Assembly: GCA_028532855.1 (NCBI GenBank)
Contig: JAQQAL010000022.1
Span: 4,844-68,843, forward strand
DNA length: 64,000 bases
Reading direction: 5' to 3'
Source: Candidatus Thalassospirochaeta sargassi
GTDB lineage: Bacteria > Spirochaetota > Spirochaetia > UBA9216
The notes under the pieces: generated by a model
What the model saw: the letters and a program-made list of their open reading frames with translations, nothing else
The model's database searches: none
What the model was told of the DNA's origin: nothing
Shown: one piece after another, positions 8,759 to 26,051 of the stretch
Layout of the letters: every line of letters begins with the position of its first letter
Numbering within the stretch: position 1 is the first letter of the stretch
Translations under genes and position numbers: made by a program

Positions 8759-8869
8759 CAAGAGATTTGGAGCAGTCTTAGCTATTGTCATGGAAATTTT
8801 GCTTACGCAAAATCCGCGCCAATGCCCTCGAAGACTCGGGTCGCTAAGCAGCTCAAATCGTCGTTAAAC
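8754..8869 (+). repeat. Integron attC site 7 (last complete site)
   Basis: ACATAACAagagatttggagcagtcttagctattgtcatggaaattttgcttacgcaaaatccgcgccaatgccctcgaagactcgggtcgctaagcagctcaaatcgtcGTTAAAC. Confidence 0.85.
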
Positions 8870-9094
8870 CGCTCAATTCTGTAGATTGCTGTCTATTACT
8901 TTATATTACTTCTATATAAGAAATTAGTCAAATCTTATTGCTCCTGGTTAAGTTGGATTCGGTCTGGTCGCAACTAATTCCTATCACTAACTGCTGTCAT
9001 ATATGTATACACTAATAAGCTTTATTGCTACTTTCTTGTTGGTGCCTATTTTATCATCCTGTTAATGTCTTGTCTTAAAATCATTATATCTTTT

Positions 9095-9122
9095 GGAGGT
9101 TATTTGGCCACCTCTTTTTTTT
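9095..9122 (+). terminator. Putative rho-independent terminator downstream of the cassette array
   Basis: Hairpin GGAGGT-tatttggcc-ACCTCT followed by a T8 run. Confidence 0.35.
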
Positions 9123-9257
9123 CTCAACTGTCAGGTTAATAACCTCACTGTAAACTATTATAACTGTTAAATATTAAAACTATTTTTGTACTAACTAATT
9201 GAATAGTTTCTAATATAACAAAAAAGTATATTTTATTCTTTCTACGTCGGGAATTTT

Positions 9258-10523
9258 TTAAGTATAGGTTTTTACTTTTACTTCATCTATTGTTTCATTT
9301 GTAAAAGGTATTTTAATACTTACTTCAAATCCATTCGATTTTGAAAAAAATATAACATCACCTCTAAGTTGATATTTTACAATATTTTTTACTAATGGTA
9401 ATCCTAATGTTTTAGATTTATCTAAGCTAATAGTGTCTTCACCTCCTTTCCCATTATCAATTATACTAATATATATTTTTTCATCATTCTGATAGCTACA
9501 TTCTATTCTGATATGTATAATTTCTTGACCATAATCAGAGTGCTCAATAGCGTTTAGAATAATTTCATTCATGATAAGTCCAATAGGTATTGATATTTCA
9601 AAAGGGATTTTAATATCAACAACATCTAAAGTCACCAAGACTCTATCACTATTAAGAACATAAGAGCTGTAAATTTCTTTTGTCAAATCATATATATAAT
9701 CTTTCAACGAAATAAATCTCAGATCATTAGCAGCATATAGTTTCTTATGCACAATAGACATTGCGTCCAATCGAGATATTGATTTTTTTAATACTGATTT
9801 AACTTCAGTATTTTCGCTATTCATAATCTGAATGTTTGTTAATGAAGAAATTATTTGCATATTATTTTTTGTTCTGTGATAAAGTTCTTTTAATAAAACA
9901 TCTTTTTCATCTAAAGCTTTTTTTAAAATTTTATTTCTATTAAAAACTTTTTTTTCTAATATAGCGTTATTATTTTCTAATTCCTGCTGTCGTTTATCAA
10001 GAATAAATCTTGTGAATAAATTTGTAATTATAAAAAAAATATTTATAATAAACCATGATATAAAGATATCTTTTGTAATATTTGTTGAAAATATGAATAA
10101 TAGAGATGCAAAAGTAATTTGTAAAATTGTATAAATTATAACTTGTTTTAATTTTAGAAATAAACTTGCAATAAAGATCGTTACGGTAATCCAAACTAAA
10201 GCAGTCATAGAGTTTTTACCAGTTACATCATATTTAAAAACAACTAAATAGCAAACTAGTAAAGTTCCAAAGATTGACATTAAACCACCAATTTTAAAAT
10301 TACGTAGTTTAGCTATTAAGTAACTTATAAAAAAGATTGGCGATCCAATTGTAAGTACTTCAGTTATTCCTGGTGGTGAATGAAATATTCCAATAGTACA
10401 AATAATTGTGTATAGCAATAAGAATAACAAAAGTCCCTTTACTTTATCATATTCTAAAGAACTGTTTGATGAAATATTTGGATAAATTAAAGATTTTATC
10501 AAGTGTAACTTTCGTAGCCTCAT
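9258..10523 (-). CDS. Membrane sensor histidine kinase of HisKA_2 type; orphan, with no adjacent response regulator
   Basis: Five to six N-terminal transmembrane helices. H-box HRTKNNMQIISSL (HisKA_2 family). C-terminal HATPase-like region (NAIEHS...DNGKG). Very AT-rich, like the cassettes. Confidence 0.7.
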   Translation of the reverse strand: MRLRKLHLIKSLIYPNISSNSSLEYDKVKGLLLFLLLYTIICTIGIFHSPPGITEVLTIGSPIFFISYLIAKLRNFKIGGLMSIFGTLLVCYLVVFKYDVTGKNSMTALVWITVTIFIASLFLKLKQVIIYTILQITFASLLFIFSTNITKDIFISWFIINIFFIITNLFTRFILDKRQQELENNNAILEKKVFNRNKILKKALDEKDVLLKELYHRTKNNMQIISSLTNIQIMNSENTEVKSVLKKSISRLDAMSIVHKKLYAANDLRFISLKDYIYDLTKEIYSSYVLNSDRVLVTLDVVDIKIPFEISIPIGLIMNEIILNAIEHSDYGQEIIHIRIECSYQNDEKIYISIIDNGKGGEDTISLDKSKTLGLPLVKNIVKYQLRGDVIFFSKSNGFEVSIKIPFTNETIDEVKVKTYT

Positions 10524-10684
10524 TCTAATTCCTTAGCAGAGTTTATAGGACTTCTTCTTGTTTTTAAAATAATTAAGAAACTATCTGTGTGACTGTAAGA
10601 CTGACATACAAATAGTTTCACATAGAAAAATGCTTTCGTCAAGAAAAATGTTATGTTTTAAAAGATAATAAAAACCTTCTCTTT

Positions 10685-11335
10685 ACCGGCTACCGCCCAT
10701 GAACCTTCTTCCGCATCCAGCCTATAACCCGGCTCACGGACTGCTACCGCAGACCGTCGGCTTCTATCCCGGCAGGGTTGCAAAAACCCGCGCCGAGGAC
10801 GTCGCTCCTGTTTTTGCTCTGCGGCCAATCGCTCCTGTTTCCGGCAACCGCGCTGCCACGCTCTCTTTGCCGGGCCTGCTAATAAAGCCTCTGCCGGCAC
10901 GTGCAGCTGCCGCGCATCCATGCGCGGCAATAAGGGTAAACTTTTCATGTAACTTTACCGGTCCTCATCAAACAGCCGTCCAGTAGAAATCGGGCAGGGT
11001 AGGTAATCTCTTCGTCTTTTCGGGAAGCACAATCAGTGCACTTGTATTAGAGAACCGGAACAGACTACCGGCCGGCTGCTATCTTCGGCCCGATTTTTAC
11101 GGCTTCCATCCGGACCAGCGCTGTTAAGGTAATTTATTGTATTTCTCCCCCCTCCCGTCCCCCCGTTGGGGGGAGCGTCCGGACTCCAGCCGTAAAAAAG
11201 GCCCGCGCAGCCGCCGTGTTTCACACCGCGGCCCCTATACATCATCATAAACCTATTCCCCGATTTGGATTCTTCATCATTGCCCGTCTCCGGCAAAACC
11301 GAAGGCTGTGCCTTCAGTTCAACCTCTGCCACTAA
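10685..11335. other. ~650 bp GC-rich island (~60% GC by eye) in an AT-rich context; probably non-coding, function unknown
   Basis: Composition shifts abruptly. The only ORFs are three mutually overlapping ones on both strands with Arg/Ala/Pro/Gly-rich low-complexity translations. It contains C/G-tract hairpins (tccccccgttgggggga; ggccgcggtgtgaaacacggcggc on the minus strand). Confidence 0.3.
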
Positions 11336-11403
11336 TTCTACACTGATTTATATAATTATCTATGTTTGTGGTATGTTGTAATTAAGAATTTATAATACAT
11401 AAA

Positions 11404-12120
11404 TTAAATCAATCTAACTTCGATATTTTCATTAAGGTAATCTCGCCATCTTTTCCAGTCGGGGTAAACCTTTGTCAGCAGCTTAAAAAAGCGGAGGCTG
11501 TGGTTATGTTCAATTATGTGGCATAGTTCATGGAATATAACGTAATCGATGCATGGTTTCGGTGCTGCTACGAGTTCGGGATTCAGATATATTCTTCCTT
11601 CTTTTGTACAGCTTCCCCAGCGCTTCGGCATTGTTTTAACTTTCAATTCAGGGATATTTATCACTTCGATTACAGAAAATGAGTTAACGCATTTCTGCAT
11701 TCTTTCATAGAATATCTGTCGCCCCTTTTCTTTATACCAATCAAGAAGAAGTTTTTCTTTTTTTTCAATAGTAAAATCTTCAGGTGTTGAAAGGTGGAAT
11801 CTTCCATTTTTTAATTTTACTTCAGGAGGACCGTTAAAAACTTTAAGCCTATATTGTTTCCCGAGATATCTGAACGTTTCTCCGTTATTATATTTTGGTT
11901 TAGGTTGAGCCGGCTGTATACGATCAAATTTGAGTTGTTGTTTATATATCCAGGAAGAACGTTTTCTGACTTTTTCCATTATTTTATCGATCGAAGCATC
12001 TTCCGGTGCTATGACTTCAACATGCTTATCCGGATAAACATGAATTGCAAGCGTTTTCCTGTTCCTGCGGTCGAGATCGAACCGGATTTCAGTTTTACCG
12101 TATCGGACGTTATAGTTCAC
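11404..12120 (-). CDS. YgjP-like (DUF45/M48-like) zinc metallopeptidase; last gene of the type I R-M operon
   Basis: WGSCTKEGRIYLNPELV...DYVIFHELCHIIEHNHS (HExxH). It overlaps the hsdR stop by 11 nt. Confidence 0.85.
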   Translation of the reverse strand: MNYNVRYGKTEIRFDLDRRNRKTLAIHVYPDKHVEVIAPEDASIDKIMEKVRKRSSWIYKQQLKFDRIQPAQPKPKYNNGETFRYLGKQYRLKVFNGPPEVKLKNGRFHLSTPEDFTIEKKEKLLLDWYKEKGRQIFYERMQKCVNSFSVIEVINIPELKVKTMPKRWGSCTKEGRIYLNPELVAAPKPCIDYVIFHELCHIIEHNHSLRFFKLLTKVYPDWKRWRDYLNENIEVRLI

Positions 12121-15100
12121 GATGTTTGGCTATCTCCAGAGATTGTTCGATGATTCGGTCTATTGCGTCATAATCCCATGAAAGGTCATAACGCCCCTTT
12201 ATCTGGAAAAGGTAGTCCTCAATGTCATTAAAAATTTTATTATGCACACTTGAATCATTTATCCAATCCCGCTTCTTGTGTTTATAAATTATATCATCAA
12301 CCTGTTTGGCTACATCCGAAGCAATATAAGCAGGAGTTTTTTCGCAAACCATATCATTCGGTAGTTCTTCAGCAATTAAGCGATAGTAAGGTCTTGCCGA
12401 TTCATGTTTTTTCAGCTCATCGGGAACATCGCTTCCGCCGCTTTCTCTCATCTCGTTCATTGCTTCACGTACTCTATTCAGATACTCGGCGTCCGATAAC
12501 CTCTTCGCTCTATGTTCGGCTATAGCCTCACTTATGATTTCTGATAACCGTTTATAGAGCAGGGGATCTTCCTGCATTTTTTCATGGATGGTTTTCTTCA
12601 TTCTGGAAGCAATTGTATCCGCTTTAGCTGCGTCTCCCTCAATACCTTCAAGTTCTCTTTCAAAGTCATCAATATTAAACAGATCAACGGGCTCTATTAT
12701 ATTTTTCACTTCATCGGCACCGATATATTTATTTACCATATTACGTATTTGTATTTCGTATGAAGAATAATCGACGGTTTCACCGAATCGTTGTTTGATA
12801 GTGTTTCTTAATGAGATGAACATTTTGAGATCGCTTTTATATCTCTCGATTGTATCAGATGAAGTATGTTCAAGAAATGCGGCATTAGAAAGGGCAAGGC
12901 GAAGCGTGTTGAAAAAAATTCTTAATGTTTCATAGAAACGATGCCGCACATCCTCTGGTTCAAGATGAAGCTGCATTGCTTCTGTATCTGTTTTATTGGC
13001 TATTTCAGAAAATATTGCCCAGAGATTGGTATGATACTCATGCAGTTTCGTGATTTCATCGGTTGTAGTAGTTAGTGTTCCGATGATATCTTCACGATCA
13101 AATCCTTTCTCTTCGAGGGTGTTGTAAAGCTCGATGGCCTCGTTGAGCTGTCCGAAAATACCCCTGTAATCAATAATTAAACCGTATTCCTTTCCGTCGT
13201 ATAATCGGTTGACGCGGGCTATAGCCTGTAAAATGTTATGTTCCTTGAGTCTTTTATCAATATAGAGGACCCCGTTTCTCGGTTCATCAAAACCGGTAAG
13301 GAGCTTGTGTATAACAATAATAATTTCAGGATCATCAGAATTGTGAAATCTGTCTATTATCGTATCCTGATAGGCTTTCGGAGTTCCGAATCTGTCCATC
13401 ATTGATTTCCAGAATCTCTGTACTTCAGGTATATTTGATTCGTCAACCTCGCTATGATCGGTTCTTGTATCAGGCGGAGACATAACTATTTCTGTGCTTA
13501 TATCACCAAGCTCATCAAAGCAGTTTTTGTATTTTACCGCCTCCAGTCGTGAAGATACGGCAAATTGTCCTTTCAAACCCGATTTACGAAATTGGCTGTA
13601 GTGCTGAATAATATCATATGTAATCTCTTTAAGCCTATCGTCGGATTTGGTAAGTTCCTCCTCTCGTCTGAACCTTTTTTTCAGATCCAGCTTCTGATCT
13701 TCGGTGAGATCTGATGTTATTCGTTCAAACCATTTGTCTATCTGATTGCGATCCCCCCGCAGTTCGCTCATTCTTCCTTCGTAAATAAGGGGAGTAACCG
13801 CCCGGTCGGCTATAGCCTGATTCATTGTATATGAATGAATAAATCCCCCGAACTTTCTTGCCGTACTTTTTTCATTCCTTAAAAGCGGTGTTCCGGTAAA
13901 ACCGATATAACATGCATTCGGGAAAACCCGTTTCATATTTGCATGTGCAGAACCGTATTGCGAACGATGACTTTCATCCACAAGTACAAATATATTTCTG
14001 CTTTCCGATTTCAGTTTGTTCTTTCTGAGTCCCGCTTCAAATTTATCGATTATTGTCGTGATAATACTTGCCTTGTTCTCTTCAATCAATTTAAAGAGGT
14101 TTTCGCCGCTGGTTGCCCGCTTTACAGCTTTTCCACAGTTCTTGAAGGTTTTATATATCTGATCATCGAGATCAACTCTGTCCGTTACGAGTATAATCCT
14201 CGGATCAATTATCGAACTTTCAAGGCTGATTGCCTTTGCCAGAAGCACCATCGTAATTGATTTGCCAGAACCGGTTGTATGCCATATAACTCCGCCCTGT
14301 CTCGGTAAATCTCCTTTCGCCTTCGTTATTTTTGAAACAGTTTCCTTTACTGCAAAGTATTGCTGGTAGCGGGGAACCTTCTTTATTTTGTTGTCGAAAA
14401 CGACGAATGATTGCGTCAATTCCAGAATACGTTCAATCCGTAATAGGCTGTATATAGTTCTATCCTGCTCAGAAGGTTTTCTGTCGCCGGCATTCCAAAT
14501 CTCCAACATCTTTTGTTTTTGCCAATCAGGTCTTTCGGAAAAAAGATGCGTCAGTGTTGATTCATCAAGTTTTTTATTAATCGAATGATTTAACTTTGTC
14601 TCATCTGTAGAATCGTATTCCTCTCTCCATATGGACCAGAATTTTTCAGGGGTTCCTGCAGTTGCATATGATGCCTGGTTCTGAGCAATGGAAAAAAGGA
14701 GCTGGCTATACACAAAAAGGTGGGGGATTTCATCAACACCCTGATTGCGTATATGCTGGCTGATACCTTCTTTTATAGAATCGGGTTTATCGGGTCTCTT
14801 TGCTTCTATTACGGCGAGCGGAATACCGTTTACAAAAAGCACAATATCGGGCTTTCTTGTTCTCCGGCTGTGTCGCTGTTCGATAATAAACTCATCGCAA
14901 ACATGGAAAACATTATTTTCCGGATTGTCCCAGTCGATGTAATTAAGTGAAAAGCTTTTTGTATATCCTTCAATTGTCTGCTCAAAACTCTTGCCGAGTG
15001 TTATCAGATCATAAATGAGTTCATTCGTAGTAATCAGACTGTCAAACGGAACCTCGCGTATCTCCTGAACTGCCTTTTCAATATTTGATTCAGTAAATTT

Positions 15101-15301
15101 GTGATTTTTTCCTTTAAATGAAAAAGAGTTTATTTTATGAAGCTGTTCTCTGAGTATTTTATCCAGTATCGGTTGATGAAGCCTGCCTCCCCGCATGGAT
15201 TCGCATTCAGAAGGTGTAATATATTCATATCCAAGATTGATAAGCTGTTTGAGTGCCGGGATAAGTGAAATTAGATCTTCCTGATATTCAGAAATTGACA
15301 T
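12110..15301 (-). CDS. hsdR: Type I restriction enzyme R subunit
   Basis: 1063 aa. Helicase motif I TTGSGKS and DEAH-like VLVDESHRSQ. N-terminal nuclease region. Sits in an operon with hsdM and hsdS. Confidence 0.9.
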   Translation of the reverse strand: MSISEYQEDLISLIPALKQLINLGYEYITPSECESMRGGRLHQPILDKILREQLHKINSFSFKGKNHKFTESNIEKAVQEIREVPFDSLITTNELIYDLITLGKSFEQTIEGYTKSFSLNYIDWDNPENNVFHVCDEFIIEQRHSRRTRKPDIVLFVNGIPLAVIEAKRPDKPDSIKEGISQHIRNQGVDEIPHLFVYSQLLFSIAQNQASYATAGTPEKFWSIWREEYDSTDETKLNHSINKKLDESTLTHLFSERPDWQKQKMLEIWNAGDRKPSEQDRTIYSLLRIERILELTQSFVVFDNKIKKVPRYQQYFAVKETVSKITKAKGDLPRQGGVIWHTTGSGKSITMVLLAKAISLESSIIDPRIILVTDRVDLDDQIYKTFKNCGKAVKRATSGENLFKLIEENKASIITTIIDKFEAGLRKNKLKSESRNIFVLVDESHRSQYGSAHANMKRVFPNACYIGFTGTPLLRNEKSTARKFGGFIHSYTMNQAIADRAVTPLIYEGRMSELRGDRNQIDKWFERITSDLTEDQKLDLKKRFRREEELTKSDDRLKEITYDIIQHYSQFRKSGLKGQFAVSSRLEAVKYKNCFDELGDISTEIVMSPPDTRTDHSEVDESNIPEVQRFWKSMMDRFGTPKAYQDTIIDRFHNSDDPEIIIVIHKLLTGFDEPRNGVLYIDKRLKEHNILQAIARVNRLYDGKEYGLIIDYRGIFGQLNEAIELYNTLEEKGFDREDIIGTLTTTTDEITKLHEYHTNLWAIFSEIANKTDTEAMQLHLEPEDVRHRFYETLRIFFNTLRLALSNAAFLEHTSSDTIERYKSDLKMFISLRNTIKQRFGETVDYSSYEIQIRNMVNKYIGADEVKNIIEPVDLFNIDDFERELEGIEGDAAKADTIASRMKKTIHEKMQEDPLLYKRLSEIISEAIAEHRAKRLSDAEYLNRVREAMNEMRESGGSDVPDELKKHESARPYYRLIAEELPNDMVCEKTPAYIASDVAKQVDDIIYKHKKRDWINDSSVHNKIFNDIEDYLFQIKGRYDLSWDYDAIDRIIEQSLEIAKHREL

Positions 15302-15310
15302 TAAAAACTC

Positions 15311-16705
15311 CTATTTATCAATACCATATTTTCTTGCCTTTTCCCAGAATGACCTCTTGCGGCCGTGTTCTGCCTTTATCCTACTGAAATAATCGGCATG
15401 AGATTCGAGATTGTCCGGATACTGAGTAATTCGTTCATCGAGAATAATCAGTTCTCTCAGGTACCCGATGCCGTATTTATATGCTTTAGAATAAGCTCGC
15501 CTTAAAATGTCGTTCAGAAGCGCCCGGTACAATACTACCTGTCCGCATAACGCATTATCTGGTCCGAGCTGCTCGAGGATGTTTAGGATGGATGTGTAGC
15601 CTAATGTCTCGAAATCCGCAGCATCATTTATCAGTCTTTGTTCTGCCTCTGCAATTTTATTCAAATAGAGAAGAACCGGAACTGCCCGCTCAGGCTGGGG
15701 ATCATTAAGGGCTGTTTTTACAGCTTCTGCAAGAATCTTTTTGTGGGTGCCCGGTTCCGCAATTGAATGGTATTCTTTTAAATAATACAGACACGGATTT
15801 TCTTTCCATTTTCTCTCCTGCAAAATACGTAGTTGTTCCGTATCTCCCGTCAACTCAAACAGCTTTTTATATAATTCATCCCTGTCGGAATTAAATCTGA
15901 TTTGCCAGGTTGTTTCCTCGAGTAATTCCCTGGCTTTTTTGAAGTCAGAGAATTGTAGATAGATTTGAATAAGTCTTTTTATCTGAAGATTATTCGGTTC
16001 AGGATTACGAATACGTAAAGCCTCTTCGTAAGCTGCCGGATTATGCATGGCGATAGCGATTTGTTCCATATTTATTTCAAAACCGGCGGCGGTATGATCA
16101 TAGCCTTCGATATTGGAGCAGTCCCAATCAAGCAGTCGGTTTTTATAGATATAGTAAATTTTCTGCAATGAATCAGGAGTAAACAAAATATCCGCAGAGT
16201 TAAGTATCAGCTCCCGGCAGCCGTAATCATTGCCGTCTGCTATATCCATGATTAAGGGAATCCAGTATTCGTCCGCTTTTTTCGTTCCGGCTGCTGCTTC
16301 GAGCCAGAGAATGCAGAATTGATTGAGTTCAGTACCGACTGCGCCTCCACTGTCGTCGACATTTTCGATGATGCTTCCGTCGTTGCGCAATACAAAGTCG
16401 GCCAAGCGCCACGCTTCATCAGGGGCTGAAGGTAGTAGTGTTTCGGTAATTTCTTCGCGAAGGTCTGCAATCTCTTCAGCGAAATCAAAACTGCTGTTGT
16501 AATTTATAAACTGATTTGACTCAATCCAGTTGTTGATCCTTTTTTTAAAGAATGCGGCAACAGTGCTGTAATCATCTTTGTTAAGGCGGTTATCAATGTA
16601 ACTGCTGATTCTTTCATCCTGCTTTTGGTAGATACTCATTATTAGTTCAATGAGTTCGTTTTTTGTCATATCCTCAAGCTTGTTTTTTACTTCTTCAAAA
16701 TCCAT
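15311..16705 (-). CDS. Hypothetical protein embedded between hsdS and hsdR
   Basis: 464-aa ORF, 10-14 nt from each neighbour on the same strand. No recognisable catalytic or NTP-binding motif. Probably helical. Confidence 0.6.
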   Translation of the reverse strand: MDFEEVKNKLEDMTKNELIELIMSIYQKQDERISSYIDNRLNKDDYSTVAAFFKKRINNWIESNQFINYNSSFDFAEEIADLREEITETLLPSAPDEAWRLADFVLRNDGSIIENVDDSGGAVGTELNQFCILWLEAAAGTKKADEYWIPLIMDIADGNDYGCRELILNSADILFTPDSLQKIYYIYKNRLLDWDCSNIEGYDHTAAGFEINMEQIAIAMHNPAAYEEALRIRNPEPNNLQIKRLIQIYLQFSDFKKARELLEETTWQIRFNSDRDELYKKLFELTGDTEQLRILQERKWKENPCLYYLKEYHSIAEPGTHKKILAEAVKTALNDPQPERAVPVLLYLNKIAEAEQRLINDAADFETLGYTSILNILEQLGPDNALCGQVVLYRALLNDILRRAYSKAYKYGIGYLRELIILDERITQYPDNLESHADYFSRIKAEHGRKRSFWEKARKYGIDK

Positions 16706-16719
16706 AAGAATAACCCTGC

Positions 16720-18009
16720 CTAAACCTTCACCCGGATTTCGCCGGTTAGCAGTTTCTGCATAAGGCCGCGTTTTTGGGATTTTATATTCTCTAATGTTTT
16801 TTTTAGGTAACTCAAATCAGCACGGAAGGTTTTTATTATATTTACTATCTCTTGCTGTTCTTTCAAAGGGGGGATTATCAAATTAATTCCATAAAAATCT
16901 GCTTTTGAAATATTAAGCAAGCCATGTGCTCTTGCACCGACCTGAACTCTACCGTTTAGTTCTATATTACAAAGACCAGACTCAAAATACTCATCAATAT
17001 ATGCTAAATTTACATTTGATTCATCTATCGCAAAACATATATATAATGTGGATAAGACACCGGCATCATATTTATCAAGAATCTTTATAGCACCAAAAGG
17101 ATATCCTTTCATTGAACTTCTGTTATATGCAAATTCATTTTTCTTTAATAAATAATAGTTTGAAAGATTTTCTCCGGATACGTTTCTTTTAAAATATTCT
17201 TTCTGGTCTACAAGACCGTTTGTTCCAGATGCCGTTAGTACATGGGAAGATTCGCCATTATTTTTACGTGTGATATCAATAGCAATATCTTTGAGTTTAA
17301 TTTTCTTCCATCCATCTAAAATTATATTATTACTGTTTGTAGGAAAACCAAAACCAGGTAATCTTCTCTTTCCGGTAAAAAGCTCATTCATTAACCCTTT
17401 TTTTCGTTTTTCTTTAAGTTCAATCAGCTTTTCAAGCTTCTCTATTGCCTCATCCCAGGTTGAGAGGATTTCGGCGATCTTTTTCTGTTCGGAGAGAGGC
17501 GGGATTGCTATAATGAAAGCTCTAACATCACCTTTCGTAATATTTGGATCTTTTCTACTGCTTGCGGCATAATTTCTCCAGCGATTTATTTCACCATTTA
17601 GATAATGAAGGAGATACTCTGAATGATGATTTTTACTTGGAAACATTGCCGACAGAGCTTGATTGCATGATGCTCTTTTCTTTAAAATCCCAGTCCGGCC
17701 GATTTGTTTGAATCCACCATACATTGCCACAAAAACAGTATCTATTGGTAAAAGTTTACAAGAACATTCAATTAGAGCAATATCAGTGATGCACTCTTCT
17801 GTATTTACGATTTCACGATTATTTAGATCTGTAGTTTTTACCCATGGATGAATACCATCTTTAAAATAGCGAACGTATTCTCCTCTATAAGGAGTTGTTC
17901 CACTCACAATTTTTGTAACATCCTTTAGTCGTTTTGTATTCCACTCTTCAGGTATCCAGCCAATCTTTGTTTCTTTATACCCGGGGCGTCCTTCGTTTAC
18001 TTTCGTCAT
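16720..18009 (-). CDS. hsdS: Type I restriction-modification specificity subunit with two target-recognition domains (TRDs)
   Basis: 429 aa. Conserved central and C-terminal coiled repeats (SEQKKIAEILS...LMNELFTG ; KEQQEIVNII...LMQKLLTG). Directly abuts hsdM. Confidence 0.85.
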   Translation of the reverse strand: MTKVNEGRPGYKETKIGWIPEEWNTKRLKDVTKIVSGTTPYRGEYVRYFKDGIHPWVKTTDLNNREIVNTEECITDIALIECSCKLLPIDTVFVAMYGGFKQIGRTGILKKRASCNQALSAMFPSKNHHSEYLLHYLNGEINRWRNYAASSRKDPNITKGDVRAFIIAIPPLSEQKKIAEILSTWDEAIEKLEKLIELKEKRKKGLMNELFTGKRRLPGFGFPTNSNNIILDGWKKIKLKDIAIDITRKNNGESSHVLTASGTNGLVDQKEYFKRNVSGENLSNYYLLKKNEFAYNRSSMKGYPFGAIKILDKYDAGVLSTLYICFAIDESNVNLAYIDEYFESGLCNIELNGRVQVGARAHGLLNISKADFYGINLIIPPLKEQQEIVNIIKTFRADLSYLKKTLENIKSQKRGLMQKLLTGEIRVKV

Positions 18010-19554
18010 CTAAAATCCCAACTCTTTCAAATATCCGTTCATCTTTGTTCTTAGCTCGCTGAGTTCTCCCTCAAGCTGCTCTATCTCTTTCTGAACGGCG
18101 GGGATGTCGACCGGTTCTTCCTCTTCGAAGGTATCAACGTAGCGGGGGATGTTCAGGTTGTAATCATTCTCCTGAATCTCTTCCTGTGAGGCAAGGTAGC
18201 TGTATTTATCTTTTGTTTCTCTATTCTTGAAGGTTGAAACGATCTTGTCGATATTTTCGCTTGTTAACCTGTTCTGATTCTTGCTGTTCTGAAATTCTCG
18301 GCTGGCATCAATGAAAAGTATATCCGTTGATTTTCGGTTTCTCTTGAAAACAAGAACGGCTGTTGGAATTCCGGTGCCGTAGAAGAGATTTCCCGGAAGT
18401 CCTATCACGGCGTCGAGCAGGTTCTCTTCAATTAGCTTCTGTCGTATCTTGCCTTCGCTTGCACCCCTGAAAAGTACCCCGTGCGGAACTACGACTCCGA
18501 TTCTGCCGTTTCCCATTGTTATAGTTTCAATCATGTGGCTGATGAATGCATAATCACCCTTTGATTTCGGCGGCAGTCCGCGGTGAAAGCGGTTGTAGGT
18601 ATCAGTCTGTGCTTCTTCAATTCCCCATTTATCAAGAGAGAAGGGCGGATTCGCAACGACAACCTCAAACTTCATGGTTGTATCGTTTTCAAGCAGCTTG
18701 GGACTTCTTATTGTATCTCCCCATTCAATTCTGGCTGAATCCATACCGTGAAGGAACATATTCATCTTGGCAAGTGCCCATGTTGAACCGGTTATTTCCT
18801 GTCCGTACAGAGCGAAATCGTTAGAATCCTTGTTTTTTACCTGATTGCCGCATTTGATAAGTAGGGAGCCTGACCCACAGGCCGGATCGCATATACGCTC
18901 GCCCGGTTTCGGATCAAGCAGTTCCGCGAGCAATTCCGACACCTCCGCAGGCGTATAGAACTCGCCAGCCTTTTTGCCGGCGCCGGCTGCAAATCTTGCA
19001 ATTAAGTACTCATAGGCATTGCCGATAACATCCATGTTACCGGTTTTTGAGGGCCTCAAATCAAGTTTCGGATTATTAAAATCCTCCAACAGGTGCTTTA
19101 ACCTCGCATTACGGTCTTTTGTCTGTCCGAGTGCTGCCTCAGAGTTGAAATCGATATTACGGAAAACCCCCTGAAGCTTCTCCCTGTTGCCTTCTTCTAT
19201 TTGTTCAAGCGCAACATTGATTATTTCTCCAAGGTTGTTTGCCTGACGTTGGGAATACAAATCGTTAAAACTGCACCCTTTGGGAAGTTTGAAGCGTTCG
19301 CGATCCAGTCTACGCCTGATTCGTTCTTCATCATTACTGAATTCTTCTATTAGGCTGTTATAGTGTTCGGTCCAGACATCGGAAATATACTTTAGAAAGA
19401 GCATTACAAGGATGTAGTTTTTATATTCAGAGGCTTCTACAACGCCCCTGAAGGTATCGCATGCCGCCCATAATACTGCCTCGATTTCCTGTTGCTTTGT
19501 TTGTGAATTGTTCTGCATATTATTCCTCATGTCCATAATTTTGATTGCTGCCAA
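18010..19554 (-). CDS. hsdM: Type I R-M N6-adenine DNA methyltransferase subunit
   Basis: Motif I DPACGSGSLL and motif IV VVANPPFS; HsdM N-terminal domain. Confidence 0.9.
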   Translation of the reverse strand: MAAIKIMDMRNNMQNNSQTKQQEIEAVLWAACDTFRGVVEASEYKNYILVMLFLKYISDVWTEHYNSLIEEFSNDEERIRRRLDRERFKLPKGCSFNDLYSQRQANNLGEIINVALEQIEEGNREKLQGVFRNIDFNSEAALGQTKDRNARLKHLLEDFNNPKLDLRPSKTGNMDVIGNAYEYLIARFAAGAGKKAGEFYTPAEVSELLAELLDPKPGERICDPACGSGSLLIKCGNQVKNKDSNDFALYGQEITGSTWALAKMNMFLHGMDSARIEWGDTIRSPKLLENDTTMKFEVVVANPPFSLDKWGIEEAQTDTYNRFHRGLPPKSKGDYAFISHMIETITMGNGRIGVVVPHGVLFRGASEGKIRQKLIEENLLDAVIGLPGNLFYGTGIPTAVLVFKRNRKSTDILFIDASREFQNSKNQNRLTSENIDKIVSTFKNRETKDKYSYLASQEEIQENDYNLNIPRYVDTFEEEEPVDIPAVQKEIEQLEGELSELRTKMNGYLKELGF

Positions 19555-20417
19555 TTGCGCGGGAATGTATTCTTTATTTCCGGTACTGATTCATACTTAT
19601 CGAATAGATCCTTTATTTCAGAGCTCCATGAACTTCCGGCACCAATTACTGATAATAGATAGTTACATATAGTTAATGCCGTAAAAACGTTGCTGTTCGA
19701 TATTCTCACAGGGCTGAACCATTCCGGATGTTTCCTTTCTCTCGGAAGTTTAAAGCTGTAACCCAGGCGTCTGTTATATAATCTTGAATGATGTGCGCAG
19801 ATATTCCGGATGCTGTTTATGCCTACTATCCATGATGACAGAACCTGATCAGGAACACCGAAGTCTTTGGCGATTGTCTGTTTCAGGCTATTGGATACGC
19901 CCCGGTATAGACTTACTATTGAGCCGAATGTCATGATTTCAACGGCCATCCATAAAGGCGGTTCTTTATGTATGTCGCCGTATTTATTCATGAAATGCCG
20001 GATAAACTCTTCACGACTTCTTTCAGTTTCTTTATGGATATTCTCTATTAGTTGTATACGCCTATAGTCTTCAAGTTCAGGTAATGCGGATTTATCAGTA
20101 TAGGCAAAGGGTCCGTTAGCCATGCTGAAGTGATAGGCTATTACTGATCTGAACGATACTTCAATCTTGTCTATGGCTGAAAGAAGATGATTTCTGAGTT
20201 TCTGATCATATTCACATATTGTGAGGATTTTTTCCAAATTAATAGATGAACTATATCTTTCATCCGGTCTTCTGAATGGATATAGATAACCGGTTAGTCG
20301 GTAGTAATTGTTATATCTCAAATATTCAAGCAACTTTTCTTTATCCGCTATAAATCCGCGGGAAATGAGTAAATCTGCTTGATCATTGATGGTTAACGGA
20401 GGTTTTGAATAGATCAT
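19527..20417 (-). CDS. Abi_2 (AbiD/AbiF-like) abortive-infection protein with a HEPN motif
   Basis: N-terminus KPPLTINDQADLLISRGF...YNNYYRLTGYLYPF and HEPN signature RNICAHHSRLYN (R-x4-H-H-x-R-L-[WY]-N). It overlaps the hsdM start by 28 nt. Confidence 0.75.
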   Translation of the reverse strand: MIYSKPPLTINDQADLLISRGFIADKEKLLEYLRYNNYYRLTGYLYPFRRPDERYSSSINLEKILTICEYDQKLRNHLLSAIDKIEVSFRSVIAYHFSMANGPFAYTDKSALPELEDYRRIQLIENIHKETERSREEFIRHFMNKYGDIHKEPPLWMAVEIMTFGSIVSLYRGVSNSLKQTIAKDFGVPDQVLSSWIVGINSIRNICAHHSRLYNRRLGYSFKLPRERKHPEWFSPVRISNSNVFTALTICNYLLSVIGAGSSWSSEIKDLFDKYESVPEIKNTFPRNWQQSKLWT

Positions 20418-20490
20418 GATAAACCTCCGGATAAAAAAACACCCGCCGAATTACGCTTGCAAAGCAGAGGCGCGGCAGGTTTGCTATAAT

Positions 20491-20519
20491 TAATATAATC
20501 CGAAAACGAGCGACTGTCA
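20491..20519 (-). promoter_or_regulatory. Putative sigma70-like promoter for the abi-hsdM-hsdS-orf-hsdR-ygjP operon
   Basis: On the minus strand: TTGACA, a 17-nt spacer, then TATATT. It lies ~75 nt upstream of the Abi ATG. Confidence 0.4.
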
Positions 20520-20558
20520 ACTTTTGGTAAGCTGAAATTAAGTAATAATCCTGTCATT

Positions 20559-21137
20559 TTAACTGTTTAATCCTTTTAAGATAATACTTTCAAGTAATTG
20601 TTGTTTTTTAGCATACAATTCATCCATAATCTGTTTTTCATGATTAACCGATTTTACTAATTCGGCAAAAATGTGAATGTCATTATCATTCGGCAATGGA
20701 ATTGTACAATTTTCCAGTACTCTCCGATTTACATTTATGAGTAAACTCGCTCCTGCATTCTTCCTGAAGTAATGTTGACCGGGCGACGAATTAATATACC
20801 ATGCTATGTATTCGGCAGGTAGATTGCTTTGGGGTGTTAAAACGGAAAATTGTTGTCCTGCAGCTGTATTCTTATCAACAGTTGATATCGGAACTGCAAA
20901 AATCCTTGTTCCCCGGCCGCAGAAGACGACATCGTTAGGTTTTAAAAAATCAGGCAAGCTTAAACCGACTTGGTTTATGCGAACCAGTTCTCCCCAATTT
21001 ATGCCTTCGGGGCTTGCATCTTTCATTTGAATGATGGAAAAGGCACCGTCAGGATCTTCGATTAATCTTCCCCTCACTGCATATCCGGTACGAATTTTGG
21101 TAATTTCTTTGAGTGGAACGTGTTTTAATTCCTTCAT
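20559..21137 (-). CDS. Orphan half-HsdS (single target-recognition domain plus conserved C-terminal helix)
   Basis: 192 aa with TRD-like LKEITKIRTGYAVRG...VVFCGRGTRIFAV and a C-terminus HEKQIMDELYAKKQQLLESIILKGL resembling the HsdS conserved repeat. Confidence 0.65.
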   Translation of the reverse strand: MKELKHVPLKEITKIRTGYAVRGRLIEDPDGAFSIIQMKDASPEGINWGELVRINQVGLSLPDFLKPNDVVFCGRGTRIFAVPISTVDKNTAAGQQFSVLTPQSNLPAEYIAWYINSSPGQHYFRKNAGASLLINVNRRVLENCTIPLPNDNDIHIFAELVKSVNHEKQIMDELYAKKQQLLESIILKGLNS

Positions 21138-21269
21138 TTATACTGATTTTACTCATGTTAATGCATTATGTCAATGAATAAGTGTTTTATTACATAATTT
21201 ATGCTTGACGTTTGAATTGTTTGGAATTATATTCCAATCATAAGATTTGTCATTGTAAAAAACGTAATC

Positions 21270-21949
21270 ATGCAGCTTCCAGACATTCAATCAAAAAATA
21301 TCCGGAGAAGGAGAATATTGATGGATATCTCAAAACAAGAATATTTAGAAAATGTACTTTCCTCATACAGAATGAGGCACATTAGTCGGCTTGTAGAAAA
21401 GCATAGAACCAGACGCGACGAGATTAAGGAGTATCTTGAAGCACATTATGGAGGGAAAATCTACAATCCGATGAATTCAGGCTCTTTTGCAAAGCATACT
21501 GCAATAAACAGTAAATTTGATCTGGATCTCGTTGTTCCTTTTAAGCGTGATTCATTTGATACTTTGGAGGGGATGTTCAAAGACATATTCAAATTGTTGA
21601 ATGCTGCCTACAAAAATCGTGCTGTTGTCAGAAAGCAAAAGGTTTCCATTGGTATTGAATTTTATGCAGATAATGACGGTGATGAAATCAGTATCGATGT
21701 AGTACCGGGGAGAGAACTGGAACAGGATAAATATCCCGATAACTATAATTTAAATCTATTTGTGAATTCCCGCTACGGAACTATAGAAGAGAAGAATTTT
21801 CTGAAAACTAACATTAAGGCTCAAATTGAATATATCAAGGCTCGTGACAATGAAAGAAAAGTAATCAGATTGCTTAAAGTCTGGAAAAACAGGCATAATC
21901 GCCCGTATAAATCATTTTTATTGGAACTGCTCACGATTAAGGCTTTTGA
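21270..21949 (+). pseudogene. Pol-beta superfamily nucleotidyltransferase (cGAS/DncV/SMODS-like, or ANT-like), N-terminal 226 codons, disrupted by IS3 insertion; the C-terminal piece resumes in frame at 23148-23226
   Basis: Motifs GSFAKHTAINSKFDLDLVVPF (GS...DxD) and LKVWKNRHN...FLLELLTIKAF. Joining 21949 to 23148 restores the frame (..TIKAF-E-NDKTINKF...GG*). Confidence 0.6.
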
Positions 21950-21966
21950 TGACCTTACCCCCAGAT

Positions 21967-22794
21967 TCATCCACTTACACTTAGAGGTTCCGGCATTTTT
22001 CCTGCTTCAAACTTATCCCGAAATTCATTCGGTGACAAGTTCCCTAATGAACTATGCGGCCTAATTGTGTTATATTCATGCCGCCAATTTTCAATAATTT
22101 TCCTGGCTTCATTTAGGTTTGGAAACCAATTCATATTTAAACAATCATCCCTAAACCGACCATTGAAACTTTCTATGAAACAGTTTTCAATCGGCTTTCC
22201 GGGAGTGATAAAAGTTAATTTAATCCCTTTTGAATAACACCAGCTATCAAGGATTCTGCTTATAAATTCCGGTCCATTATCACATAATATAAAATCTGGA
22301 AATCCTCGCAATAAACCTATTCTTTCCAATGTTGCTGCTACTCTTCTTCCTGGCAATGATGAATCAACTTCGATAGCGAGTGCTTCTCTTGTAAACTCAT
22401 CAATCACATTAAAAGTACGAAATCTTCTACCACCGGCAATACTATCTGATACAAAATCCATTGACCATTTTTCATTCGGTCGAACAGGAGCATCCGGCCG
22501 TTCCCTGTTCTCAGAGCGAATCCTTCTTTTTCGTTTGCGACGCAGGCTTAATTCTTCTTCACGATAGATTCTCTCAACTTTCTTGTGATTTACTTTTACG
22601 CCTTCACGTCTTAAAAGAACATGAATTCTTGGGCTTCCATATCTCGGATATCTTCTTGCAAGAAATTTAATCCGTTCTCTGAGTTCTGTTTCTTCATGTC
22701 CTTTCTTTTCGTATCTGAAAGTGCTGCGATTAAGATGCGAGAGTTTGCATGCTCGTCGTTCAGATAGCCCGAAGTTATTGATTAGACGGTTCAC
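21967..22794 (-). CDS. IS3 transposase OrfB (DDE/rve integrase core)
   Basis: WSMDFVSDS...NVIDEFTREAL...CDNGPEF...NCFIESFNGRFRDDCLN; typical IS3 catalytic domain. Confidence 0.85.
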   Translation of the reverse strand: MNRLINNFGLSERRACKLSHLNRSTFRYEKKGHEETELRERIKFLARRYPRYGSPRIHVLLRREGVKVNHKKVERIYREEELSLRRKRKRRIRSENRERPDAPVRPNEKWSMDFVSDSIAGGRRFRTFNVIDEFTREALAIEVDSSLPGRRVAATLERIGLLRGFPDFILCDNGPEFISRILDSWCYSKGIKLTFITPGKPIENCFIESFNGRFRDDCLNMNWFPNLNEARKIIENWRHEYNTIRPHSSLGNLSPNEFRDKFEAGKMPEPLSVSG

Positions 22795-22805
22795 CGCTGT
22801 TCGTT

Positions 22806-23078
22806 TTACTTCGGGCTGCAGTAGTTTTTTACTAAATCATTTAAAGCAAGAATATCAAGAGCCTGATCTGCTACCAGCCGTTTTAGTTTCTGGTTTTCAG
22901 ATTCCAGTTCTTTAAGCCTTTTAACATCGCTGATCTGCATCCCACCATATTTACTTTTCCAATTGTAATAGGTTGCATCGCTTATTTCATACTTGCGACA
23001 GACATCAAGAACCTTCGCTCCTGCGATTACCTCATTCAAAATCTGGACAATTTTCTCTTCTGAATACTTTGTTTTCAT
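22806..23078 (-). CDS. IS3 transposase OrfA (HTH plus leucine zipper)
   Basis: MKTKYSEEKIVQILNE...ATYYNWKSKY...LKELESENQKLKRLVADQ; ends at the frameshift site. Confidence 0.85.
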   Translation of the reverse strand: MKTKYSEEKIVQILNEVIAGAKVLDVCRKYEISDATYYNWKSKYGGMQISDVKRLKELESENQKLKRLVADQALDILALNDLVKNYCSPK

Positions 23079-23147
23079 CCTGACCTCTCCTTAATTTTCG
23101 GCCGGATTACTAAGCTGCTTTTGGACTAATTTTAAGGGGAAAGGTCA

Positions 23148-23226
23148 GAATGATAAGACAATCAATAAATTTCTAATATATGAGTGTACAATTAATGGCA
23201 TATGTAAATCATGGAAAGGAGGATAA
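23148..23226 (+). pseudogene. C-terminal remnant of the IS-disrupted nucleotidyltransferase
   Basis: In-frame continuation NDKTINKFLIYECTINGICKSWKGG* immediately after the IS right end. Confidence 0.5.
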
Positions 23227-23337
23227 TTTGCCAGCGATGGAGATGACCGCAATGGATCAGAAGAAAGAATTTATTCTACTCTGGAAATCCGGGCAGTATA
23301 GTTTCAGTCGGAAAACACAAAAGATAAATTCCGAATA

Positions 23338-23398
23338 TCAATAGACTTGGAGCAGTCTTAGCTATTGTTGCGAAAAATTTGCTTGCGAAAATCTGCGT
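23338..23398 (+). repeat. Truncated attC (5' half only)
   Basis: acttggagcagtcttagctattgttgcgaaaaatttgcttgcgaaaatctgcg matches the 5' arm and variable hairpin of attC3/6/7. It lacks the conserved 3' arm cgccaatgccc...gtcGTTA. Confidence 0.75.
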
Positions 23399-23418
23399 GA
23401 ATAATATGTAGAAAATTA

Positions 23419-25061: not shown

Positions 25062-26051
25062 TTACCTTGCTAAAGCTTCGACAATCTGCTCTGTGTTATA
25101 ACGGGCAAAGTCAAGATAGTCGGTTCCGCGTCCGTCCGCGGCCAGTGAACCGGTCAACAGACTAACAACCGGCAAAGGTCGGCTGGTTTCCTCCGCTACC
25201 GCATCTGCCATTTTTATCACATTTTGTCCTGCGGTTCCGCCGACAAAAATAGCACGTATATCATTTACCTCAACAATTTTTACCACTTCAGCGATATGCT
25301 TTGCCGAAGGATCAGCCTGATCGCTCATATGGGGCAGAAGATTTGCCATAATCGTGAAACCGTAATCATCTGCGAAATATTCAAACGATTCATGATCCAT
25401 CACAAGTTTGCGATCTTCAGGTTCTACTCGCTCAATAAGTTCCCGCATTTCAGCATCAAGAGCAAGAATCTTAGCTTCATAAGCCTCTCCATTTTCATGA
25501 TATAATTCAGCATTATCCGAATCTACGTCCTCAAGTGTTTCGACGATTTCATGAACCCAATGTACAACCTTTAGCGGCGAGAACCAGAAATGAGGATTCC
25601 CATCATGGTGATGATGGTCTGCTTCGTGTTCATCGTGATGGTCTGCTTCATGTTCATCGTGATGGTCTGCTTCGTGCTCATCATGATGGTCGGCTTCAGC
25701 AATAAGGCCGTGAGAAACTTCGACTATAATTGGTCCATCAAGATTTTCAAGAACCGGCAACAGCTCTTCTTCTAAACCCAGACCATTAACAAAAATAATA
25801 TCCGCTGACTCCATCGCCGCTATATTACGCGGGGTAGGGGTATAAGAGTGGGGGTTCTGCCCCAACGGCATCAGGACCGTTAACTCACCGTTATCCTGAA
25901 GAACCTGTTTCACAACGTCTCCGATGATATTTGTTGTTGCTACTACCTTTACTCCAGCCTGATCCTGCGAAGTACTCTCAGCATTCCCGTTTGCGAATAC
26001 CGTCAATGTTACAATCAGTAACAAAAATAAACCGAGGGATGCTTTTTTCAT
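25062..26051 (-). CDS. Periplasmic metal-binding protein (TroA/ZnuA cluster A-I) with a His-rich loop
   Basis: Signal peptide. His/Asp/Glu-rich insert HDEHEADHHDEHEADHHDEHEADHHHHDGNPH typical of ZnuA. Confidence 0.85.
   Translation of the reverse strand: MKKASLGLFLLLIVTLTVFANGNAESTSQDQAGVKVVATTNIIGDVVKQVLQDNGELTVLMPLGQNPHSYTPTPRNIAAMESADIIFVNGLGLEEELLPVLENLDGPIIVEVSHGLIAEADHHDEHEADHHDEHEADHHDEHEADHHHHDGNPHFWFSPLKVVHWVHEIVETLEDVDSDNAELYHENGEAYEAKILALDAEMRELIERVEPEDRKLVMDHESFEYFADDYGFTIMANLLPHMSDQADPSAKHIAEVVKIVEVNDIRAIFVGGTAGQNVIKMADAVAEETSRPLPVVSLLTGSLAADGRGTDYLDFARYNTEQIVEALAR
25603..25700 (-). repeat. 24-bp coding tandem repeat (~3.5 copies) encoding the (HEADHHDE)n His-rich loop
   Basis: gtgatggtctgcttcgtgttcatc repeated with minor variation. 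Confidence 0.8.

Follow-up and report, generated by a model that had tools for sequence, protein, structure and literature searches.

A 5' remnant of a type II CBASS cyclase gene between a defence island and an IS3-family element in a Spirochaetales genome

The 64-kb stretch of DNA analysed here (the window) holds an incomplete CD-NTase gene, lying between a type I R-M/AbiD defence island and an intact insertion sequence (IS), followed by a short cassette tail and half of an attC-like repeat. The features, with the evidence for them, are:

12110 to 21137, minus strand: type I R-M/AbiD defence island (profile matches), adjoining the CBASS remnant on the opposite strand
12110 to 15301, minus strand: hsdR
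15311 to 16705, minus strand: DUF6880 protein
16720 to 18009, minus strand: hsdS
18010 to 19554, minus strand: hsdM
19527 to 20417, minus strand: AbiD/Abi_2
20559 to 21137, minus strand: single-TRD hsdS-like ORF
21321 to 21949, plus strand: CD-NTase (SMODS) type II CBASS 5' remnant, codons 1–209 plus 2 nt (Pfam, PADLOC, tblastn, HMM)
21950 to 23147, transposase on the minus strand: intact IS3-family insertion sequence, 1198 bp (inverted repeats, Pfam, NCBIfam)
21967 to 22794, minus strand: IS3 orfB, 275 aa from GTG, DDE integrase core with HTH_21, rve and rve_3 (Pfam, NCBIfam)
22806 to 23078, minus strand: IS3 orfA, 90 aa, HTH_Tnp_1 (Pfam)
23148 to 23334, plus strand: integron-type cassette tail, unrelated to the cyclase, AT-rich (34% GC)
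23335 to 23399, plus strand: attC-like repeat, left half only (nhmmer, profile positions 7–72 of ~130, E 2.4e-9)

The nucleotidyltransferase ORF spans 21270–22064 on the plus strand and runs into the IS, where it stops at 22064. The 226 codons that the first-pass annotation counted ahead of the IS hold for an in-frame ATG at 21270, but the ATG at 21321 (MDISKQEY) is the likelier start and gives 209. The fragment matched the Pfam SMODS profile PF18144 (30.6 bits, cut-off 26.5), the PADLOC Cyclase profile PDLC00803 (E 2.5e-65, covering profile positions 2–191 of 253) and the NCBIfam model CBASS_cyclase_a (E 9.5e-22; 77.5 bits, under the model's 200-bit equivalog cut-off). Over residues 1–210 it was 59–68% identical to more than 100 full-length family members, and it is identical to the NCBI protein PQJ61_09655, from a Spirochaetales bacterium MAG. 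The Pol-beta catalytic motifs GSFAKHTAINSKFDLD and ISIDVVPG are present, with the pattern G[GS]x9-13[DE]x[DE] and a third acidic residue in place; the catalytic columns S53 G54 S55, D67 D69 and D126, invariant across 20–25 homologues, are retained, as are 65 of the 67 invariant columns of the family. No ANT or Lnu profile matched at E ≤ 0.1 in Pfam or NCBIfam, the matches being to SMODS, to CBASS cyclases and, weakly, to a CCA-adding enzyme. Judged by these profile matches, the gene is a CD-NTase/SMODS CBASS cyclase and not an ANT/Lnu resistance enzyme. The earlier description of a cGAS/DncV/SMODS-like Pol-beta nucleotidyltransferase was therefore borne out by the HMM search that it had proposed (CD-NTase, SMODS and ANT), and the resistance enzyme that it had kept as an option fell away. 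Among solved cyclases, the family profile came closest to CdnC of E. coli MS115-1 (PDB 6p80, E 1.6e-9). An AF2 model of the homologue P0002, of moderate quality (pLDDT 69.7, pTM 0.54), gave Foldseek matches to the CdnD, CdnG, CdnE, DncV, cGAS and OAS folds at a TM of ~0.3, which is the right superfamily and serves as supporting evidence only.

Intact members of this family are ~320 aa long, and 115 of the 120 best homologues measure 310–335 aa. In the window, homology stops at the left end of the IS: tblastn alignments with five full-length homologues and an HMM built from 115 sequences all end at 21950–21953, the HMM being aligned to the fragment only up to profile position 211 of 319 (homologue residues 1–210/211). 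Profile positions 212–319 found no match in any frame of the 64-kb window, even with the filters off (hmmsearch --max; E ≤ 100). The conserved C-terminal ~108 residues of the homologues (KAFDK..ISGNLWEKLK...DPGNS...RFG) are thus missing both after the IS and from the window as a whole. On the predicted fold of a full-length homologue, the truncation coincides with the end of helix 198–211, and the fragment is not a complete two-lobed enzyme, since helices 218–232, 250–253, 256–275 and 277–283 and the tail 291–319 are missing. One half of the active-site cleft is contributed by the C-terminal lobe in known CD-NTase structures.

The element adjoining codon 209 has terminal inverted repeats at 21950–21961 and 23136–23147 that are complementary at 11 of 12 positions (TGACCTTACCCC / TGACCTTTCCCC), and its ends read TG...CA (TGACCTTACCCC / GGGGAAAGGTCA). 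It resembles IS3-family insertion sequences in its OrfA (HTH) and OrfB (DDE rve) proteins and in an A AAA AAC slippery site at 22824–22830 for a -1 frameshift from the orfA frame into orfB; its transposase scored 248 bits against the NCBIfam IS3 model NF033516 (cut-off 160). Unlike typical members, it lacks a 3–5-bp direct repeat at its flanks (...TTTTGA before the IS, GAATGA... after it). Because the ends were set by the inverted repeats, with no second copy to compare, this call depends on the chosen boundary; we read the absent target-site duplication as a sign of later deletion or rearrangement and not as an argument against IS3 membership. No further copies or fragments of the element occur in the 64-kb window, and PLSDB held no close DNA relative, only distant fragments (the best with ~69% identity over 15% of the length). 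In its 1.2-kb size and TGACCT..CCCC ends it may resemble the IS407 group.

To the right of the IS, no HMM or tblastn match to the cyclase C-terminus, Cap2, Cap3 or NucC was found. The flank carries a small orphan ORF at 23237–23344 on the plus strand (35 aa from ATG 23237, stop TAG 23344), for which a TTG at 23228 behind the Shine-Dalgarno sequence GGAAAGGAGGA (23213–23223) or an ATG at 23180 (54 aa) are alternative starts. The small ORF matched nothing in Pfam, PADLOC or NCBIfam, and a search of 5.8 billion proteins with the 54-aa form recovered nothing but the same ORF of the same sample; the idea of a decayed IS481-type HTH N-terminus was dropped because there was no family match and the sole database relative was the ORF itself. 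Its TAG stop lies inside the half attC, in which the R'' core ATAAC has become ATATC and the right half with the GTTAT core is missing. This copy accordingly lacks the inverted R''/R' cores and the hairpin-forming strand of an attC: no hairpin can form, and the single-stranded DNA fold had a z score of +0.8, against -5.5 for a full copy. A GTTATGTTT motif near 10648, considered as the lost right half, was put down to chance, as nhmmer did not support it even at E ≤ 10. With its own Shine-Dalgarno sequence just before the half attC, the small ORF looks like a separate small cassette.

Sedentary arrays with species-specific attC repeats are known in chromosomal integrons, for instance that of Treponema denticola. 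In the window, seven complete attC-like repeats of ~125–145 nt lie co-oriented within 1401–8874, the last complete one at 8752–8874. The full copies have ATAAC...GTTAT cores, a bottom-strand fold of -29.5 kcal/mol (z -5.5) and eight covarying pairs with compensatory changes, and the array units hold one or two ORFs each. The co-oriented repeats are like those of the sedentary chromosomal arrays of Vibrio (VCR/VXR, PMC13638679); unlike the Vibrio-type integrons, the window contains no integrase or attI, and the copy near the remnant is a left half only. Given the cassette orientation, an intI would lie beyond the left edge of the window, ahead of position 1. The half attC lies 14.5 kb past the last complete one, with a histidine kinase gene, the type I R-M/AbiD island, the CBASS remnant and the IS in between, and the cassette tail that bears it adjoins znuBCA. 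No attC or attC fragment was detected by nhmmer in 8875–23334, a range that includes the stretch separating the hsdS-like gene from the start of the cyclase.

The loci of homologous cyclases point to the context from which the remnant probably derives. Of 83 homologue loci, at least 60 show the order cyclase–Cap2 (E1-E2)–Cap3 (JAB)–NucC, with the cyclase first; all the others, contig-end truncations aside, combine Cap2 and Cap3 with another effector. In these loci Cap2 matched PADLOC E1-E2 (PDLC00852, E 1.3e-208), Cap3 matched PADLOC JAB (PDLC00890, E 2.2e-49) and the effector matched PADLOC NucC (PDLC00745, E 3.4e-94); the effector is also a clear relative of the MS115-1 NucC structure (PDB 6p7o, E 3.5e-44). 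Cap2/Cap3 pairing in this cyclase family differs from the type III CBASS of E. coli MS115-1, where regulation is by HORMA/TRIP13. The final G319 was invariant in 25 intact homologues, a few of which have 1–4 extra residues after it, and R317 and F318 were at least 90% conserved; the cyclase C-terminal glycine is the site of Cap2 conjugation (10.1101/2022.03.31.486616). With two of the loci as queries, Cap2, Cap3, NucC and the other homologue-locus neighbours gave no tblastn match in the 64-kb window at E ≤ 1, and the glycine-ending tail, the Cap2 conjugation substrate, is likewise absent from it. Compared with the PADLOC model of type II CBASS with NucC, whose genes are exactly those carried by the loci of its kin, the fragment keeps the catalytic motifs; only the first 209 codons are present here, and the C-terminal lobe, the RFG tail and the adjoining Cap2, Cap3 and effector genes of a type II operon are not in the window.

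These observations very probably reflect an IS-truncated 5' pseudogene of the cyclase of a four-gene type II CBASS system, the rest of which was lost by IS-linked deletion or rearrangement. The ancestral cyclase would have headed an operon of cyclase, Cap2 E1-E2 ligase, Cap3 JAB protease and NucC endonuclease. The IS3-family element would have come to adjoin codon 209, and the last ~108 cyclase codons would have been lost along with cap2, cap3 and the effector gene, most likely through an IS-associated adjacent deletion or through some other rearrangement ending at the IS. The same event would have joined the right end of the IS to unrelated DNA, namely the integron-type cassette tail and half attC. 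Because the partners and the cyclase C-terminus are nowhere in the 64-kb window, the IS is at a deletion or rearrangement junction, with the CBASS 5' remnant on its left and the unrelated cassette tail on its right. The near-perfect conservation of the remnant, together with the intact ORFs, frameshift site and inverted repeats of the IS, indicates that the truncation was recent. The order and mechanism of the deletion are our reconstruction around the identity of the gene, its truncation point, the absence of the missing parts from the window and the operon content of the homologue loci; since no uninterrupted locus was found, the closest intact homologue having 68% identity, the deletion is deduced from absence and not from a before-and-after comparison. 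As this absence covers the 64-kb window, part of a contig of ~250 kb, the missing half could lie elsewhere in the genome if, say, the IS had mediated an inversion or a translocation. It is possible, as had been suggested, that IS insertion silenced a costly gene, although the locus displays the loss of a whole system and not merely an insertion.

By homology, phage infection would have led the ancestral cyclase to make a cyclic oligonucleotide, which would have activated NucC to degrade DNA in an abortive infection. Cap2 would have primed the enzyme through conjugation of the cyclase's C-terminal glycine, a step that Cap3 would have undone. Since NucC effectors answer to cA3, the signal was probably a cyclic trinucleotide. 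The remnant itself is almost certainly non-functional, an ordinary pseudogene, because it has lost all of its partners, the ...RFG tail used for conjugation and half of the helical lobe at the C-terminus.

The first-pass annotation had instead seen a ~255-aa nucleotidyltransferase, cleanly interrupted by a simple IS3 insertion, in which excision would restore a minimal signalling or resistance enzyme on a decayed integron cassette. Parts of that description stand, including the IS3-family assignment and the 35-aa ORF whose stop overlaps the truncated attC, and the gene and the half attC do share an orientation. In-silico excision of 21950–23147 also leaves the frame open, for 25 full codons and a split codon, as had been noted; however, shuffles of the right flank gave an open run of at least 25 codons in 11% of cases in that frame and in 30% in any frame, and the resulting peptide NDKTINKFLIYECTINGICKSWKGG aligned with none of the residues that the family conserves beyond position 209 (G216 N217 L218 W219, D242 P243 G244 N245, R317 F318 G319). 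Homologues cross the junction with ~108 different conserved residues, so the frame continuity across the IS is not meaningful and the coincidence that the annotation had itself named as a refutation is what was found. The family length and the end of the profile match at 211 of 319 argue against a protein of ~255 aa, the Cap2–Cap3–effector operons of the homologues against a minimal module, and the missing target-site duplication against a simple insertion. Nor does the cyclase appear to be cassette-borne, since no attC precedes it, it adjoins the R-M/AbiD island, and the small ORF and half attC are unrelated DNA. A clean split is therefore barely credible. Had the post-IS codons been genuine, the expected form would be a ~250-aa homologue with an ending like NDKTINKFLIYE...; more generally, an open frame over an IS is no proof of a clean split unless homologues are checked. 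Only slightly less remote is expression of the truncated protein (a 209-aa core plus 38 IS-encoded residues, 247 aa) as a decoy, regulator or residual nucleotidyltransferase. The intact GS...DxD...D motifs and invariant positions and the open frame to 22064 would be consistent with this, but a recent truncation explains the high conservation equally well, the cut removes the helices and tail listed above, the window holds no effector to take the signal, and no natural homologue as short was seen (the two short ones were a frameshifted variant and a contig-end fragment).

The junction might also be an artefact, in which the assembly took the left flank from one copy of a repeated IS (the cyclase) and the right flank from a second copy (the integron), leaving the 3' part of the cyclase and cap2-cap3-nucC on another contig. 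The source is a short-read MAG, and the missing duplication and unrelated flanks fit a join across a repeat. Against this, Logan contig SRR22388478_17049 is 100% identical over 21331–23416, with both IS junctions unbroken; it was built independently, although probably from the reads that also went into the MAG. Nothing points to a second IS copy, because a 153-billion-gene index recorded the exact OrfA and OrfB on that contig only, and the rest of the window has neither a copy nor a fragment. We consider such a chimera improbable. Somewhat less so, though still unlikely, is that the whole type II CBASS operon was carried by the integron, as a cassette or within the array; the half attC would then be what is left of the operon's own attC, and the interior would have gone in the IS-linked deletion. 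This variant is compatible with the truncation and deletion that we favour. The array of seven cassettes at 1–8874 runs in the same direction as the cyclase and the half attC, and phage-defence systems, among them a CBASS-type-I-like pair, have been reported from integron cassettes (10.1101/2024.07.02.601719). The attC-free interval from 8875 to 23334 speaks against it, as does the GC content (36% in the cyclase and ~40% in its neighbours, against ~30% in the cassettes), the attC family matched none of the 83 homologue loci, and the small ORF ahead of the half attC looks like a cassette in its own right. Equally doubtful is the broader view that the integron array took in, or fused with, an island of R-M, AbiD and type II CBASS between the attCs at 8752–8874 and 23335–23399, in its strongest form with the CBASS operon as an oversized cassette later purged by IS-linked deletion. 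If true, integron arrays would be acceptor sites for full-size defence operons, which ISs then prune.

Under the preferred reading of a truncated and partly deleted operon, PQJ61_09655 should be annotated as a truncated CBASS CD-NTase pseudogene and not as a hypothetical protein or an intact minimal nucleotidyltransferase, and the genome should not count as CBASS-positive. The finding is an ordinary one; it adds one more case of defence-system loss tied to IS activity in a defence island and matters little beyond annotation. A better lead, for cataloguing integron cargo, is the integron-type array of this Spirochaetales MAG, in which two cassettes match PADLOC candidate defence families.

The nucleotidyltransferase (NTase) ORF runs into an insertion sequence (IS) at 21950, beyond which a short flank follows:

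21270-22064, + strand: NTase ORF, with Pol-beta nucleotidyltransferase motifs GSFAKHTAINSKFDLD and ISIDVVPG in the product
21950-23147: IS3-family IS, 1198 bp, with 11/12-matching terminal inverted repeats TGACCTTACCCC ... GGGGAAAGGTCA
23148-23334: right flank of the IS, 34% GC

Because homologues begin at the second ATG (21321, MDISKQEY), this is probably the coding start. After in silico removal of the IS, the reconstructed protein matched Pfam SMODS (30.6 bits; cut-off 26.5), 21 PADLOC CBASS 'Cyclase' models (top PDLC00803, E 2.5e-65) and NCBIfam CBASS cyclase models, the last with scores under their equivalog cut-offs; no ANT or Lnu family was among its Pfam, PADLOC and NCBIfam matches. 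The full-length homologue P0002 was modelled with AlphaFold2; the model, moderate in quality (pLDDT 69.7), retrieved the folds of CdnD, CdnG, CdnE, DncV, cGAS, OAS and other Mab21-type proteins, and the nearest solved sequence by family profile was E. coli CdnC (6p80). These results confirm the cGAS/DncV/SMODS-like assignment of the first-pass annotation and exclude the ANT/Lnu resistance enzyme as an alternative. The cyclase belongs to CBASS type II/NucC, a known family with many members.

The minus strand of the IS codes for a 90-aa HTH_Tnp_1 protein and a 275-aa HTH_21/rve/rve_3 protein, with a slippery heptamer (A AAA AAC, 22824-22830) in the orfA frame. The IS3 transposase model NF033516 (NCBIfam) scored 248 bits versus a cut-off of 160, and the element is an intact member of the IS3 family. 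No target-site duplication surrounds it: the sequence on its left ends in TTTTGA and that on its right starts with GAATGA.

The gene had been described as cleanly split, its frame resuming after the IS, and simple excision does leave the frame open for 25 more codons and a split codon before TAA. A large protein search returned 1054 relatives, 115 of the best 120 being 310-335 aa long; the sole 100%-identical entry was the protein annotated in the MAG itself, PQJ61_09655 (Spirochaetales bacterium), which reads into the IS. Residues 1-209/210 of five full-length homologues aligned to 21321-21947/21950 (tblastn), where the alignment ended. Similarly, a family HMM built from 115 full-length proteins (profile length 319) matched at positions 1-211/319, ending at 21953, and positions 212-319 had no match in six frames of the 64-kb window with filters off at E<=100. 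After KAF, the family alignment is conserved as D/E-K-x-x-I-S-G-N-L-W-E-K-L-K ... D-P-G-N-S ... Y-F-P ... R-F-G; none of these positions is present in the post-IS peptide NDKTINKFLIYECTINGICKSWKGG. Shuffling the right flank gave open runs of at least 25 codons in 11% of trials in a fixed frame and 30% in any frame. Homologue length, alignment ends, shuffles and the missing duplication therefore indicate that the frame continuity is coincidental, the outcome that the first-pass annotation had itself named as telling against it, and the clean split gives way to a truncated gene followed by an unrelated peptide.

In the predicted model, the cut falls at the end of helix 198-211 and removes helices 218-232, 250-253, 256-275 and 277-283 as well as the tail. 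With the final third of the protein, its conjugation tail and every partner missing, the remnant (codons 1-209) is best read as a pseudogene, and it is very unlikely that the truncated enzyme is still functional. The retention of 65 of the 67 columns invariant in 20 homologues, together with the intact IS, points to a recent truncation. In P0016, a 246-aa homologue from an ENA contig, unrelated sequence begins right after ...KAFKNENISGNL and runs to the end; it is probably a frameshifted copy, and decay of this cyclase family is therefore not unique to the window.

Searching by genomic context and scanning one genome per species yielded 83 loci with intact homologues. After ORF clustering, the gene order was cyclase (~320 aa) followed by proteins of ~555, ~154 and ~275 aa in at least 60 of the 83; the fourth gene was a 2-TM protein (PADLOC Mem_03) in six and a TM-fused second cyclase-like protein in three, and the remaining loci end at contig ends. 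Matches to Cap2 (PADLOC E1-E2, E 1.3e-208; Pfam ThiF), Cap3 (JAB, E 2.2e-49) and NucC (PADLOC E 3.4e-94; PDB 6p7o E 3.5e-44) identify a type II CBASS with NucC nuclease. Cap2-mediated conjugation requires the C-terminal glycine of the cyclase (10.1101/2022.03.31.486616; PMC10097602), with which the conserved ...RFG C-terminus of the family agrees. Cap2, Cap3 and NucC had no match anywhere in the window.

The second cyclase-like protein (~350-360 aa, N-terminal transmembrane segment; PADLOC Cyclase PDLC00803, E 4.7e-36) comes after NucC, and takes its place as fourth gene in loci L007, L008 and L017. A membrane-anchored CD-NTase paralogue within a type II CBASS operon is unusual. Its positions are:

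Homologue locus L005: 11886-12962
Homologue locus L007: 11103-12173
Homologue locus L046: 11837-12901
Also present in ~10 other homologue loci

The sequence to the left of the remnant includes:

1401-1541, 2932-3056, 4155-4277, 5308-5450, 6356-6500, 7390-7514 and 8752-8874, + strand: seven complete attC-like repeats
1593-2939: cassette ORF ATPase_2/DUF234, PADLOC candidate defence family PDC-S27 (E 2e-48)
7580-8758: cassette ORF AAA_14/DUF4143, PADLOC candidate defence family PDC-S01 (E 1.4e-73)
9258-10523: histidine kinase gene, AT-rich, 25% GC
11404-21137, - strand: type I R-M locus (YgjP-like metallopeptidase, hsdR, DUF6880 protein, hsdS, hsdM, AbiD/Abi_2, hsdS-like ORF)
20559-21137, - strand: single-TRD hsdS-like ORF, 192 aa

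Each complete repeat (~125-145 nt; ATAAC at the start, GTTAT at the end, variable central stem) is preceded by one or two + strand ORFs in DNA of ~30% GC. As single-stranded DNA the repeats fold better on the bottom strand (-29.5 kcal/mol, z -5.5), with compensatory changes in eight base pairs. They have the properties of chromosomal-integron attC sites; no integrase lies in the window, and it would be left of position 1. Right of the IS, the flank at 23148-23334 has no relative except itself, and the small ORF (35 aa from ATG 23237; possibly 54 aa from ATG 23180 or 38 aa from TTG 23228, the latter 4 nt past a GGAAAGGAGGA Shine-Dalgarno) has its TAG stop within a repeat copy at 23335-23399. 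This copy covers profile positions 7-72 only, has ATATC where complete copies have ATAAC and fails to fold (z +0.8), which confirms the truncated attC reported earlier. Its proposed tie to the cyclase did not hold: no attC or attC fragment lies between 8875 and 23334, the repeat is absent from the homologue CBASS loci, and left of the cyclase is a type I R-M locus with embedded AbiD and the extra hsdS-like ORF, on the opposite strand at ~40% GC. The IS therefore parts two unrelated pieces of DNA.

The simplest history has two steps, tentative in order and mechanism. An IS3 element would have inserted into the cyclase of a CBASS operon that lay within a defence island. All DNA up to a cassette tail at the edge of the integron and znuBCA would then have been lost, through an adjacent deletion associated with the IS or through a different rearrangement with its end there. 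IS-associated loss of defence systems within defence islands is commonplace. The main technical rival is a chimeric assembly join across a repeated IS in this short-read MAG; however, both IS ends are spanned by a Logan contig from SRR22388478 with 100% identity over 21331-23416, exact matches to OrfA and OrfB are on record from that contig only, and the window holds no second IS copy.

That the CBASS operon arose as an integron cassette is unsupported and improbable. For the integron context, rather than the cyclase, there is a slim chance that the array absorbed, or was fused to, a full defence island. The sequence feature is real, but not as a minimal, cleanly split, cassette-borne signalling module; cyclase, IS and repeat are each members of known families (CBASS type II/NucC, IS3 and attC-like).

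The PDC-S27 and PDC-S01 matches indicate that the integron cassettes carry candidate phage-defence genes. Among the ORFs of the array (1-8874; Spirochaetales MAG) are two ATPases, a GNAT and an ion-channel fragment, and several have no family match. Between the histidine kinase gene and the YgjP/type I R-M block, an abrupt GC-rich stretch (10680-11330; ~55-60% by eye) looks structured, with no convincing ORF, no Rfam match at gathering (only noise at E<=1) and no PLSDB match. Motif GTTATGTTTTA at 10645-10660 is similar to the R' end, with the bases downstream of it, in some copies of the attC (such as GTTATGTTTAC at 7505); without profile support, it is probably a chance occurrence in AT-rich DNA. 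In the R-M locus, the DUF6880 protein between hsdR and hsdS has a weak PADLOC PDC-S62 match, AbiD/Abi_2 overlaps the hsdM start, and the single-TRD ORF may encode a specificity subunit, either spare or truncated. Directly right of the half attC lies the znuBCA operon, in which the His-rich loop of ZnuA (25062-26051, - strand) consists of three tandem HDEHEADH units, then HHHDGNPH.
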